A DNA stretch of 25,981 nucleotides from an uncultured archaeon (GCA_964534625.1 CAZHRF010000024.1:18417-44397); one strand, 5' to 3'. Positions 15,029 through 24,059 are shown, counted from the stretch's first letter. A program made the numbers and translations. Notes: generated by a model from the letters alone, not told the origin.

Positions 15029-17194
15029 TTAAACAATTTCGAGATCAATCAAGATCTCTTCTGAGAATTTACTATTGTCTTCGTTTTTACCACATAGATA
15101 TGTAAGAGAATTAAATACTCTAAAAAATTTTTCAATCAGTTCCTTCCATGTGGCAATGGTTGAATCACTAATGTGGTATTTAGCGCTTAATTCGATTATA
15201 CTCATTCCATTAGTCCAAATATCTTCTATTAAAGATAAAGTTTTATTTTTAAGTAGTTCATTCGCCTGAATTTCTCGTCTGAACTGTTGATCTATATCTA
15301 CAACTTTACCCATAAAATACATGAAGTTTATTTTTTCTTTTGCGTTAAAAAAACTCACGTAATCCAAAAAATCATAAGGATGGAGAAAATTGAAGCTACA
15401 CACTTTCCCAAACAAAGTTGTATTGAGTTTATTCTCTTTAGATCTAACTATGAAACCGTTATTAACCAACCAATCAATAATTCCATATGCTGAAAGATAA
15501 ATACGATTTTGAAGATGAGCTATGATAAAGCGTTGATGTTTACAAACATAGTTCGAGTAAATAGATTGGCACGTACAACTGTTTTTAGCTGGAGATAAGA
15601 ATGTTTTGAATGTTTTTGTCCCTTCTCTGGTTACTGTTCGGCTTTCCATGTTTGTTTGTTGAAGAGAAATGATTTCAAGAGGATGATGGCTTGTATTTTT
15701 ATCAAAAACTTGATCTAATTTTTCATAAAACGTTAATATTTCGTCGAGAGTATTATTTGCTGCTATTGAGCTGTATAAATTTATGTGAGAAACAGTATTA
15801 TCAGTAAAAAAATGTTTGTTCTTGTAAAACCAAAAAGAGTTGGAAATCTGCCCTAAAAGAGTTTCAATATCGTTTGAAAAGGAGGGTTTTGAATAGCTGA
15901 TTTGATTCAAATAATATTGACATAAAAAAGCATAATTACCAAATTTACTCTTAATTTCATCATACTTTGCAACTAGCTGCGGAGTATTTATTCCACTTTT
16001 ATCTTTGTGAACACTTTTTGCTTTTTGAAATAATTTTTCACGTATTTTTGTTTTGTTTGTGTGGCGATTTGATAAGATTATCCCCGTACCTTTGTCTTGA
16101 AATCCCCATCTACCTGCTCTTCCTAATATTTGAAAGACTAAATTATTAGAATCTTTGATAACTCGAGTTGTGTGGAGATAGATACTTACTTGAGCAGGTA
16201 AATTTACTCCCGCAGCCAACGTTGATGTGGCAAAAAGAAAATCAATTTTGCCATCTAAATAAAGTTCTTCAATTAATAATCGTATGATATCACTTAAACC
16301 GGCATGATGATACCCTATTCCATGTTTAACTAATGTTCTTAATTTAGGAGGTAAATATGTTTCCTTTGCTATTTGTCTAACTTCTTGATCAGTGGATAAT
16401 TTAAGATCTTCTAAAAAAACGTTTAAATCAGTTCCTGTAGTATAGGTATTTTTTTTGTTATCTAATTCCAGTGCCAATTTCTCTGTTGTGTGTCGAGAAC
16501 CACAAAATATCAGTACTGGTAAAGATGTTGACATTAAATCTTGAATTCTTTTTATAATATCATATGAATAATCCAAATGATAATGAATGGGTACAGGGCG
16601 CTTATTGGCAACTATCAGTTCTAAATCTAACCAATCAGAGAGCTCAATAGGGTTATCAATAGTTGAAGAAAGCAAAATTAGTTGCTTTTTTTGTGTATTA
16701 AAATGATAAGACAAAACTAGCTCTTCTAAAACCGTTCCACGATTACTAGAAAGGAAATGAAATTCATCTATAGCCATAATCTTAAGATATTTGAGCAAAA
16801 TTGGATATTTTTTTAAGCACACTAAAAATTTTTCATATGTACCAATGAAAACATTTGAATCTAAAATATCATTTTCACTTATTTTTACTCCTCCCACTGT
16901 TAATAAGATTTTTAATCCATAGGGACTAAATTCAGCTTGTACTTTTTCATATTCTTGAATGGCTACTGATTTATATGGAAAAAGAAAACAGACCTTAATC
17001 TTTCTGGGGCTATTAAGAAACTTGTTAAAATGTTTTCTAAAATAATTTAGTAAATAAACTTTAGTGATGAATGTTTTACCGGTTGAAGAAGGAGCTACCA
17101 TTAGTACGTTTTTTCCATTACTCATCTTTTCTAACGCTTGTTGCTGGAAAGTCGTTAAGTGTATTTTTTTAGGATTAGCTTGAACATCCATCAT
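15029..17194 (-). CDS. Ski2/Hel308-like SF2 DExH helicase with inserted SWIM zinc finger
   Basis: Q motif LTTFQ, Walker A APSSTGKT, GTYEK, DEFH, LSST, LIFCGSR, HHAGL, ATSTLAAGVNLPA, QILGRAGR; SWIM CTC-x8-CKH; WH wing LVNNGFI...TTLFG. Confidence 0.9.
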   Translation of the reverse strand: MMDVQANPKKIHLTTFQQQALEKMSNGKNVLMVAPSSTGKTFITKVYLLNYFRKHFNKFLNSPRKIKVCFLFPYKSVAIQEYEKVQAEFSPYGLKILLTVGGVKISENDILDSNVFIGTYEKFLVCLKKYPILLKYLKIMAIDEFHFLSSNRGTVLEELVLSYHFNTQKKQLILLSSTIDNPIELSDWLDLELIVANKRPVPIHYHLDYSYDIIKRIQDLMSTSLPVLIFCGSRHTTEKLALELDNKKNTYTTGTDLNVFLEDLKLSTDQEVRQIAKETYLPPKLRTLVKHGIGYHHAGLSDIIRLLIEELYLDGKIDFLFATSTLAAGVNLPAQVSIYLHTTRVIKDSNNLVFQILGRAGRWGFQDKGTGIILSNRHTNKTKIREKLFQKAKSVHKDKSGINTPQLVAKYDEIKSKFGNYAFLCQYYLNQISYSKPSFSNDIETLLGQISNSFWFYKNKHFFTDNTVSHINLYSSIAANNTLDEILTFYEKLDQVFDKNTSHHPLEIISLQQTNMESRTVTREGTKTFKTFLSPAKNSCTCQSIYSNYVCKHQRFIIAHLQNRIYLSAYGIIDWLVNNGFIVRSKENKLNTTLFGKVCSFNFLHPYDFLDYVSFFNAKEKINFMYFMGKVVDIDQQFRREIQANELLKNKTLSLIEDIWTNGMSIIELSAKYHISDSTIATWKELIEKFFRVFNSLTYLCGKNEDNSKFSEEILIDLEIV

Positions 17195-17195
17195 T

Positions 17196-21743: not shown

Positions 21744-22422
21744 AAATATCGCCTTCTAAAATTTCATCACTTGATGTATTTTTACCAAAAATTATTGCTT
21801 TAGAGTCGCTATCATGACGATAAATAGGGATCAATAAAAGCAAAACAGGTAAAAAAACTGTTGGTGGAGACACAACCCCTGTATTGTAAGAATACGAGAT
21901 GTAAGTACTGATAATTGCTACTAGTGCTTTTACACACCAAAGAAATAGTGATGATTTCGTTGTGTTAAGAACTGCTTTAATCTCTTTTGAGCTTGGAACT
22001 GCAGTTACAACAATAATAATACTAAAGATCAACAATATCCACGCTAAGAACTCGATATTTAAATTGAACCAAGTAAATTTAATATCCATACTGTCTAATC
22101 GCTGATGGACATCAAAGAATAGATAAGCTAAAGAAAATAACGCTACAAATGGCCCGATAATAATGCTTGTCATTAAGCAATCAAAATTATCACACTTTTC
22201 TATTGTTAGAGTTGATTCTTCCCATTTATATTCCATAACTTCTACATTGTAAAACCAAAGAAAAAGGCGTTTTATAGGCAATCGAACTAAATTACCTGCA
22301 AACATTATTATTTCGTAAATTTTCTTTGGTAAGAGAAAAACTATCATTCTAAAAAGTATAGCGAATAAAAGAAAAGACAATAAAGTGTTAAAAGCCAATA
22401 AAGTTTGTATCAATGGATCCAT
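21736..22422 (-). CDS. Integral membrane protein, M50-like metalloprotease fold lacking HExxH
   Basis: About 5 TM segments; FAGNLVRLPIK...NVEV...IIIGPF...TAVPSSKE follows the archaeal PGxxxHExxH...V.V...IsxAPF...(H)AxPSxxD layout. ATG 22422 overlaps the upstream stop (TAATG). Confidence 0.6.
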   Translation of the reverse strand: MDPLIQTLLAFNTLLSFLLFAILFRMIVFLLPKKIYEIIMFAGNLVRLPIKRLFLWFYNVEVMEYKWEESTLTIEKCDNFDCLMTSIIIGPFVALFSLAYLFFDVHQRLDSMDIKFTWFNLNIEFLAWILLIFSIIIVVTAVPSSKEIKAVLNTTKSSLFLWCVKALVAIISTYISYSYNTGVVSPPTVFLPVLLLLIPIYRHDSDSKAIIFGKNTSSDEILEGDIFG

Positions 22423-24059
22423 TATGCCCACTCCACCAAAGAAGATTGTTTTGGATTGTGTTTTGGTATGGGAATATCCTCTATTTTCTCATTCAACCTT
22501 GTTTGTTCTTTGTCTTTTACTTTGTCTTTTTTAACAGATATTTTAGTATCTAAGTAGCTATTGAGTGTTTTTTTCTTCTCGTCTGAAAGATTTATGGATA
22601 AATATTCGTTTAAAAATTTATCAACAAAATTATTGATTTCTGTTGAGCTAGGCATTTCTATTTCTACATAGTTTACAATACGTTCTAAATAAGAATAAGA
22701 TGGAAATACTAATTCATCATAATTTTTAATTGAACAGAAATTTACTGCCTTCATGAACCTTGTTTCATCAAGTGGATAGGCTTTTTCTAATTGATTCTCT
22801 ATTGCTTTTTTATAAAAGCCATTAACAGTACGAGCAAAGGAATCAAAAGAGTAACCCAATTTTGTTATGAGTACATCTTTAATATTCTTTTTCAGTCGGT
22901 CAATTTTATCTCTCTCTTCTACAGATAATCCTTGGTCGTTTTCTTCTTCCTCATTTTTCTGTGAACTAACAGATTCTTGTAAATCAATAAAGCTATCTGG
23001 AACGTCTTCAGACTTGTCTCTATCATTATCATTTGATACATACCCTTCATCTATTTCTATTTCCTTAAGAAAATTCTGATTTCCAAGTTCTATGGTCTCA
23101 TGTTCCATATCATTGATAACGTCTAATTCTCTTAGAGCAGAACTTATCTCTCCTTGGATGTTAAGTTCTTTAACAGATTTTAATGGTTCAGTGTCTATCT
23201 TTTCTATTTGTTCTATTGAATCTAATTCTATTTCACTAGATGGGTCTTGTAAATCAAATTGATTATCATACTTTGGAGCTAAAGATTCAAGATCTCCAAT
23301 CATATTTCTATCTTGATTCTCTACACTTTCTTCCTCTTCTGTTTCTTCTTCTAGAGTTTGGTTTTTAGGGATACTGATAACTTTATCATAAAGAGGAAAC
23401 AAGATTGATAGATTCTTTTTTGCGACTGTTTCAAAATTTATGTTTGACTGATGTTGAATAGTATGTATTATTTGAACTATTTCAGGAAATACTACTCGCT
23501 CTAAGTCTTCAATTGTTTCTGTTATTTCTGTTTTTTTAACTCTAAGAGAGACTGATTTTAAAATTAAAGCAGAAAAAGTATTTGTATCTACAAAACTACA
23601 ATTATATTTCGAAGACATTTGCGAGAGAATGTTATTAGAAACGGAGGAAAGAAGAGAACGATTATCACCTCTCAAAAAAGCTATTTTGCACGCTAAGACT
23701 GGAGTTAGCTCAATGTTATTTCTAGAGACAGCGTTAGCAAGTATAAAACCTCCATGGGATTCATATTGTTGTGAAATAATGATGGCTTGTTCTTCAATAA
23801 GTGAGACATTCTTACTATTCTTCGTTTCCACATCTTGTAAATACTTTACGCCCACTTGATTAATTATTTCTATGCTAATATATGATAAAATAACACAAAT
23901 AATAGCCTGTGACCATCCAGAGAAGAATATCGTGAGAAAAATTGATAGTACAAAATAAATTATGATAGCCAACACATATTGAAACCAATAGGGTAGTCTT
24001 TTATTATCTAAAACCTTTTGTTTAAATTTTGTTAGAAACTGTTGATATTTTATAACCAT
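22422..24059 (-). CDS. Hypothetical membrane-anchored protein (2 N-terminal TM, globular domain, acidic linker, helical C-terminal domain)
   Basis: Hydrophobic residues ~25-68; very acidic low-complexity region ~235-380 (EEETEEEES, NEEEEND); first gene of the coupled cluster. Confidence 0.8.
   Translation of the reverse strand: MVIKYQQFLTKFKQKVLDNKRLPYWFQYVLAIIIYFVLSIFLTIFFSGWSQAIICVILSYISIEIINQVGVKYLQDVETKNSKNVSLIEEQAIIISQQYESHGGFILANAVSRNNIELTPVLACKIAFLRGDNRSLLSSVSNNILSQMSSKYNCSFVDTNTFSALILKSVSLRVKKTEITETIEDLERVVFPEIVQIIHTIQHQSNINFETVAKKNLSILFPLYDKVISIPKNQTLEEETEEEESVENQDRNMIGDLESLAPKYDNQFDLQDPSSEIELDSIEQIEKIDTEPLKSVKELNIQGEISSALRELDVINDMEHETIELGNQNFLKEIEIDEGYVSNDNDRDKSEDVPDSFIDLQESVSSQKNEEEENDQGLSVEERDKIDRLKKNIKDVLITKLGYSFDSFARTVNGFYKKAIENQLEKAYPLDETRFMKAVNFCSIKNYDELVFPSYSYLERIVNYVEIEMPSSTEINNFVDKFLNEYLSINLSDEKKKTLNSYLDTKISVKKDKVKDKEQTRLNEKIEDIPIPKHNPKQSSLVEWA

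Follow-up and report, generated by a model that had tools for sequence, protein, structure and literature searches.

The systems known as Ced in Sulfolobales and Ted in Thermoproteales use VirB4-like proteins to import chromosomal DNA, with Ted loci also carrying repair genes (PMC9905601) and Ced belonging to a TFB3-dependent regulon (PMC11823120). The N-domains of CedB and CedD jointly reconstitute the N-domain of VirB4 (PMC11868833), and Gram-positive type IV secretion systems (T4SSs) use surface adhesins (PMC12857230). In eukaryotes, the SWIM protein SWS1 and the RadA-like paralog SWSAP1 occur together in the Shu complex (PMC6316741). No mechanism of gene exchange is known for Asgard archaea. 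A duplicated Asgard RadA has been described, with no function assigned to it (PMC12722695). Here, we analyzed a stretch of 25,981 nucleotides (the window; GCA_964534625.1, CAZHRF010000024.1:18417-44397) on contig C24 of a genome (3.37 Mb, 90% complete) from an uncultured Asgard archaeon of the Heimdallarchaeum family (hereafter, the family), in which a first-pass annotation had pointed to six genes, g1 to g6, as a candidate membrane-associated DNA-processing system. This gene set is conserved, under selection and distinct from housekeeping repair, and it has a promoter motif in common with the genes for XPD-like and Hef-like helicases, a second RadA, and surface proteins anchored in the membrane. 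The six genes form part of a larger regulon whose members are dispersed across the genome. The cluster is undescribed in the searchable literature, where subscription journals are largely missing; new in this analysis are a held-out test of the regulon, a predicted interface between g1 and g5, selection estimates, and the exclusion of an intact ATPase from the regulon.

Comparison with described systems

Like Ced and Ted, the cluster is chromosomal and nonmobile and encodes a VirB4/HerA-fold protein, predicted to be anchored at the membrane, with a partial alpha/beta N-domain (PMC9905601, PMC11868833, PMC11823120). There are also two VirB4/HerA-fold proteins per genome, recombination genes are linked or coregulated, and the halves of the N-domain come from two polypeptides, namely, CedB and CedD there and, as predicted, g1 and g5 here. 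However, the VirB4-like ATPase of Ced/Ted has intact Walker A and B motifs, whereas that of the cluster is ATP-dead and carries a terminal winged helix, and neither the CedA/VirB6 channel (six to seven transmembrane [TM] helices) nor the CedA1/TedC pilin has a counterpart found for the cluster. The cluster alone has its own SWIM-helicase, nuclease, RadB-like protein and RadA paralogs, M50-type proteins and giant adhesins. Ced/Ted are further defined by DNA import activity and induction upon DNA damage. We did not file the cluster as a member of Ced/Ted, because the features defining those systems either failed here or could not be matched, although it would work like them if it serves DNA exchange between cells.

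Conjugative T4SSs resemble the cluster in that a two-TM protein binds a VirB4-fold protein (VirB3-VirB4; predicted for the cluster) and genes for large surface adhesins lie nearby (PMC12857230). Their VirB4, however, keeps Walker A and B, and VirB6, a coupling protein, a relaxase and a mobile element were not seen at the cluster. In addition, conjugative T4SSs are mobile and patchy, whereas the cluster is vertical and single-copy, with g5 in 26 of 30 family genomes and a GC content (around 30%) that is the same as that of the genome. The HerA-NurA-Mre11-Rad50 operon also places a HerA-superfamily fold near recombination genes, but g5 lacks ATPase motifs and has an alpha/beta N-domain, unlike the HAS barrel of HerA, and the genome carries an intact canonical operon on another contig. 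Hachiman (HamA-HamB) and nuclease-HerA defence systems combine a small nuclease with a Ski2/Hel308-like helicase or use a HerA fold, while the cluster has no match to HamA and no active HerA, is distributed like core genes, and has membrane and recombinase partners. The Shu complex is likewise a recombination module that unites a RAD51/RadA paralog with a SWIM zinc finger (PMC6316741), but in the cluster the SWIM is inserted in a helicase; the likeness is an analogy only. Overall, the cluster did not map onto Ced/Ted, a T4SS or any PADLOC system, in line with the first-pass view that it matches none described.

Conservation and proposed coregulation of the gene set

All six open reading frames (ORFs) are intact and lie on the minus strand, together spanning 15029-24059 of the window (Table 1). 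The compact arrangement that the first-pass annotation had described was confirmed: four of the five junctions overlap or are 1 nucleotide (nt) apart, with a TAATG overlap at g1/g2 (ATG 22422). The exception is the g3/g4 junction, a gap of 71 nt (20974-21044). Within this gap, upstream of g4, lies a separate promoter-like site, so that the genes are likely transcribed as two units, g1-g3 and g4-g6. All six genes are under purifying selection (dN/dS, 0.03 to 0.25).

Table 1. Features of the cluster, its promoter-like sites and related loci (window positions unless a locus is named)
Feature	Position	Strand	Description
g1	22422..24059	-	545 aa, two TM helices, alpha/beta domain, acidic linker, helical tail; predicted membrane anchor of g5
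g2	21736..22422 (ORF 21736-22431, 231 aa)	-	~228 aa, likely ATG 22422; 5 TM, M50-type pseudo-protease
g3	21045..21743	-	232 aa, RadB-like RecA paralog
Promoter-like site upstream of g4	20995..21016	-	Pyrimidine-rich element and TATA box; score 16.7, rank 6/2720
g4	20485..20964 (ORF 20485-20973, 162 aa)	-	159 aa from ATG 20964; PD-(D/E)xK-like
g5	17196..20495	-	1099 aa, VirB4/HerA-fold pseudo-ATPase
Degenerate Walker A of g5	19671..19703	-	AGDKKNRE in place of GxxGxGKT
g6	15029..17194	-	721 aa, Hel308/Ski2-like helicase paralog with SWIM zinc finger
SWIM motif of g6, CxC-x10-CxH	15536..15577	-	C540, C542, C551 and H553 invariant
Promoter-like site upstream of g1	24099..24120	-	Score 15.9, rank 7/2720
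Promoter-like site facing divergent gene	24250..24271	+	Score 14.8, rank 13/2720
Divergent helical protein, 258 aa	24300..25076	+	Carries promoter site; probable regulon member
Two-TM pilin-like protein	L092:4199-4456, L099:12550-12801, L100:4670-4927, L101:16179-16436		Outside the source genome

Conservation of the gene order in relatives, whose absence had been named beforehand as evidence against a system, was complete in 11 of 14 family loci; two further loci stop at a contig edge after g5, and one is split. The flanking genes, by contrast, vary between genomes. In relatives, genes for a 613-amino-acid (aa) surface protein, the second RadA and a giant Ig-repeat protein lengthen the block. 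Identity of the 613-aa protein as a fusogen (HAP2/fusexin) was rejected, since it has internal repeats instead of a PF10699 match. In other orders, reshuffled sets surround the nuclease gene, with Hef-like and XPD-like helicases, RadA paralogs, and giant Ig and M50-type proteins, while Thor-like and several other Asgard families have tight operons of a RadA paralog, an XPD-like helicase, a dead HerA, a SWIM-Hel308, a RadB-like protein and TM genes. In several lineages, among them Heimdall, Gerd-like and Hod-like ones, the cluster has giant Ig proteins and proteins with a signal peptide and a C-terminal TM helix as neighbors. In most lineages, the g5 gene abuts the SWIM-helicase or nuclease gene, often with translational coupling. 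Hod-like loci (L053:5150-7915 and others) encode, near the nuclease, a 920-aa helicase with a weakly TPR-like N terminus and an MrfA/DUF1998 zinc domain in place of the SWIM-Hel308.

The canonical archaeal transcription factor B (TFB) recognition element is purine rich. Upstream of the cluster genes, we found instead a pyrimidine-rich element that precedes a TATA box. The 2,720 genes of the source genome were scored with a matrix derived from 39 sites, all from relatives, and cluster-linked genes made up 9 of the top 20. Among these were g4 (6th), g1 (7th), a 681-aa surface protein (8th), the divergent 258-aa gene (13th) and the second RadA (15th). Four genes whose orthologues were absent from the training set still ranked high, with two paralogs of the surface protein in 2nd (a giant one) and 3rd place and the XPD-like and Hef-like helicases 4th and 20th, respectively, whereas the housekeeping copies of RadA (2,666th), Hef (423rd) and nurA (596th) ranked low. 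In held-out loci of two complete genomes, seven of nine cluster genes scored at least 10, compared to 9 of 44 others. The matrix may owe part of its signal to T-rich terminators of genes lying upstream; the g1 site, however, lies between divergent genes. The rest of the regulon is located loosely on C4:56488-112866, which holds paralogs of g2 and of the surface proteins, the XPD-like helicase, a 2,704-aa Ig protein and a second M50-type gene, as well as the pair of Hef-like and second RadB-like genes and the second RadA. The gene leading the giant Ig operon has no promoter site.

The product of the divergent 258-aa gene weakly matched (E = 2e-5) a family that precedes the giant adhesin operon; identity of this gene and its family as a TFB was not supported. 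A candidate reader of the noncanonical promoter is the divergent TFB-like gene at C1:52680-53729, which lies near a secretion-type ATPase (C1:50259-51605) and a small Flp-like pilin (C1:58876-59064). The same promoter motif also precedes an aldehyde-dehydrogenase-like gene of 486 aa in two genomes (C4:78483-79943; L048:9158-10588), and a 218-aa gene with four TM helices (C4:94484-95140) has a high promoter score too.

The six proteins

Searches of Pfam, NCBIfam, PADLOC and PDB sequences returned no match for g5, which was placed solely through its fold and language-model features. Its model (pLDDT 77) comprises the alpha/beta N-domain, a VirB4/HerA fold (residues 234 to 602), a winged helix (residues ~632 to 727) and a helical tail. 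The best structural match of the core was the VirB4 motor domain 4ag5 (Z = 27.2; root mean square deviation [rmsd], 3.1 over 331 residues), with HerA at Z = 23.3, and its ESM Atlas neighbors were VirB4, HerA and CedB (0.91 to 0.92; CedB, 0.91). This fold match, together with an eroded Walker A, upheld the call of a HerA/VirB4 pseudo-ATPase. The Walker A was degenerate in all 51 aligned "dead" homologues, drawn from many Asgard families, and yet the ATPase-like part of g5 is under purifying selection (dN/dS, 0.03 to 0.14). The Loki homologues that were retrieved are intact ATPases. Being a quick one with long branches and rows picked by the same profile, the HerA tree does not prove that the dead clade arose only once.

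Hydropathy gave two TM helices for g1 and about five for g2, in agreement with the two membrane proteins of the first-pass annotation, while Pfam, NCBIfam, PADLOC and PDB sequence searches assigned neither. Residues 1 to 235 of g1 were modeled with a pLDDT of 90 and include a cytoplasmic alpha/beta domain (residues ~90 to 230). Structure searches with the g1 model gave no strong PDB match, the best hits being YbjN/type III chaperone-like folds (Z = 7.3), and the ESM Atlas gave no usable match. When residues 1 to 200 of g5 were predicted in complex with residues 79 to 225 of g1, the pair scored 0.76, against 0.11 for the best control. The interface mark that this pair passed is reached by 58 of 80 solved pairs and 2 of 110 mismatched ones and is only roughly applicable here, where our own alignments were used. 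At least 55% of the contacts were common to the runs, the partner pLDDT was at least 74, and the predicted interface consists of edge-strand pairing of g5 residues 78 to 87 with g1 residues ~153 to 160. Because the N-domains of CedB and CedD together rebuild that of VirB4 (PMC11868833), this pass may reflect likeness to solved VirB4. Profile-profile comparison detected no sequence homology among the g1 domain, the g5 N-domain and the N termini of fused or intact ATPases; one-chain fusions of two TM helices, the domain and a dead ATPase occur in other Asgard lineages. We predict that g1 anchors g5 at the membrane via strand pairing with its N-domain, giving a VirB4-like unit unable to use ATP. 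A membrane-tethered scaffold, as originally proposed, is supported by this modeled interface.

The g2 protein aligns with cluster homologues that retain HExxH and weakly match PF02163 (E = 4e-4 and 0.04). Judging from these alignments, g2 is a membrane protein of the M50-peptidase type whose zinc motif is lost, i.e., a pseudo-protease: HExxH is replaced in g2 and in all aligned members of its family, while some distant cluster homologues retain it. A match of the g2 profile to NIPA2 (E = 0.003) was set aside as hydrophobic.

The g6 helicase matched NF040935 (Hel308) with an E value of 3e-44 (151 bits, against a cutoff of 1,200) over residues 13 to 390, that is, the N-terminal half only. Its helicase motifs are intact, and the conserved SWIM at residues 540 to 553, present in 15/15 full-length cluster helicases and 0/20 canonical Hel308 proteins, bore out the SWIM-Hel308 assignment. 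In the tree, cluster helicases and canonical Hel308 fall on separate sides (SH-aLRT, 100), so that g6, lying outside the canonical clade and lacking a full-length match, is not Hel308 proper; the canonical Hel308 gene adjoins an MCM-like gene on C6. In one relative (L029:3356-5528), the SWIM-helicase gene is in two ORFs (380 and 342 aa), through a frameshift or an assembly error.

The RadB-like nature of g3 also held, the protein matching TIGR02237 (RadB; E = 1e-15, below the cutoff) and its profile matching the solved RadB 2cvf (E = 5.5e-17). Walker A and B are intact, with an invariant Walker A lysine, and the RadA N-terminal domain is missing. The first-pass expectation of several pseudoenzymes was therefore correct for g5 and the M50-type g2 but not for the helicase and the RadB-like protein, which keep their catalytic motifs. 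For g4, the proposed identity as an MmcB-like nuclease had to be dropped, since PF06319 had no match at an E value of ≤5 in the genome, nor did any of 15 aligned members match it. The protein was also left unassigned by Pfam, NCBIfam, PADLOC and PDB sequence searches. Residues E10, D55, E70 and E72 are invariant, in PD-(D/E)xK spacing and with ExE replacing ExK, and g4 is thus a putative PD-(D/E)xK-like nuclease of an unnamed family, its activity being suggested by the motif only. The gene (dN/dS, 0.04 to 0.08) is single-copy in most families of the Heimdallarchaeia, and searches of two families of the same order yielded none (0/9 and 0/3).

Proposed DNA exchange between cells and competing explanations

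Our leading explanation, to which we give about even weight, is that the cluster is the core, or the receiving and recombining arm, of a contact-dependent DNA-exchange program that receives or exchanges chromosomal DNA between cells. It is just as evenly balanced whether this program is ancient, chromosomal and coregulated and couples cell surface contact to homologous recombination, in a way that would parallel Ced/Ted with a different construction. Cells would be held together by giant Ig-repeat and beta-rich surface proteins, and g1-g5 might form a membrane scaffold or passive conduit in which the winged helix of the dead ring grips DNA. The intact SWIM-helicase could then unwind or pull DNA, replacing the ring motor, while the nuclease g4 would trim it and the RadB-like g3 would help to load the second RadA for strand invasion.

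Several findings weigh against DNA exchange. The g5 ring is ATP-dead in every cluster orthologue, and the only intact VirB4/CedD-like ATPase of the membrane in this genome (938 aa; C1:23086-25902; L079:9087-11903) is unlinked to the cluster and has no promoter site (rank, 1,228). VirB6/TrbL, a VirB2-type pilin, ComEC and HAP2 all fell below the cutoff in five genomes, two of them complete, and a four-sequence pilin profile from Thor-like and other Asgard archaea found nothing in the source genome (90% complete). The VirB4 N-domain was not among the structure search matches of the g1 domain. Finally, the promoter motif is not exclusive, with 51 sites scoring at least 14.5 genome-wide, and the matrix failed to transfer to other families.

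The 938-aa ATPase is present in 27 of 29 family genomes, has relatives across many Asgard families, and matched NF053655 (CedD-like) with an E value of 1e-18, below the cutoff. As the motor of the system it was supported by neither linkage nor promoter, although it might act in trans. For the VirB6 channel, PF04610 was below the cutoff in the five genomes, but such channels are very divergent and a remote homologue is possible; the NCBIfam Ced profiles had no match among candidate TM proteins. PF18895 likewise gave no VirB2-like pilin above the cutoff, and none is in the locus. In Thor-like archaea and one other Asgard family, a VirB2/TedC pilin-like two-TM protein of 83 to 85 aa is encoded near an intact VirB4-like ATPase (Table 1). 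Neither a relaxase nor a coupling protein was present in the loci examined, relaxase families not having been searched genome-wide.

A serious though rather unlikely alternative is that the cluster forms a membrane-tethered repair and recombination platform for the cell's own chromosome, acting in stress-induced repair, fork rescue or segregation while no DNA passes through the membrane. In its favor, the active components are all enzymes of recombination or repair, the regulon yielded no channel, pilin or active translocase, and a DinB-like polymerase gene (C16:41668-42801) carries the promoter motif (rank, 17). Such a platform nevertheless leaves unexplained the giant Ig adhesins and extracellular beta-rich proteins, which are linked to the cluster in several lineages and have the promoter in common, as well as the complete and separate housekeeping repair set: Hel308, RadA, Hef and nurA-herA are all located outside the cluster. 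This set includes the nurA-herA-mre11-rad50 operon at C86:746-7338, and a second herA locus (C6:13127-15793) has a nurA-sized gene upstream. M50-type proteins usually process membrane proteins. This background, the HExxH kept by some cluster homologues, the exchangeable helicase (DUF1998-type in Hod-like genomes) and the gene orders that differ between orders would all suit an improbable arrangement of two coregulated but mechanistically separate modules, in which a degenerate secretion or adhesin-biogenesis device (g1, g2, g5 and the surface proteins) and a recombination toolkit would be turned on jointly in some developmental or stress-related condition, for example aggregation. The winged helix of g5 and the tight, often translationally coupled junction of its gene with that of the SWIM-helicase or nuclease in most lineages argue against this separation.

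Defence against viruses or plasmids, of the Hachiman or nuclease-HerA type, appears very improbable. It is suggested by PADLOC HamB profile matches of g6 (best E = 1e-29) and by HerA defence structures among the fold matches, but the HamB matches are generic and weaker than that to Hel308, and PADLOC found neither HamA nor any other partner. Moreover, the cluster is single-copy and near-universal in the family rather than patchy, is linked to RadA paralogs and adhesins, and its genes are not mentioned in a 2026 paper on the Asgard defensome (PMC13700489). A chance grouping of housekeeping radB, hel308 and herA genes, or a decaying mobile element, would agree with the variable flanking genes and the inactive ATPase. 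Synteny, selection and trees refute this explanation, to which we attach almost no weight: canonical copies lie elsewhere, so that the cluster does not hold the sole radB and hel308, the order is conserved, all six genes are under the purifying selection given above, GC matches the genome, and the only viral link is a single weak match for the nuclease.

The cluster connects the second RadA with a coregulated set of proteins of the membrane, the surface and DNA processing in archaea that are the nearest known relatives of eukaryotes, and it supplies named candidates for archaeal genetic exchange before meiosis. Returning to DNA exchange between cells, we suggest, tentatively and with less than even confidence, that a dedicated, switchable, contact-dependent exchange of chromosomal DNA existed in the ancestor shared by many Asgard archaea, with adhesins in place of pili, an ATP-dead VirB4-like ring as membrane scaffold and a private recombination toolkit comprising the second RadA, a RadB-like mediator, the SWIM-Hel308 and the XPD-like and Hef-like helicases, i.e., a parasexual program in the lineage that gave rise to eukaryotes. 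If the cluster instead only repairs the cell's own chromosome, an ATP-dead VirB4-like scaffold kept under selection phylum-wide would mean that a conjugation protein had been put to a new use.

Elsewhere in the window, a 664-aa TPR protein (13018-15012, plus strand) converges on g6, 16 nt apart, and is not beside the cluster in relatives. The window also holds a full formiminotransferase-cyclodeaminase and a separate cyclodeaminase-only paralog (2513-4066 and 10370-10993).

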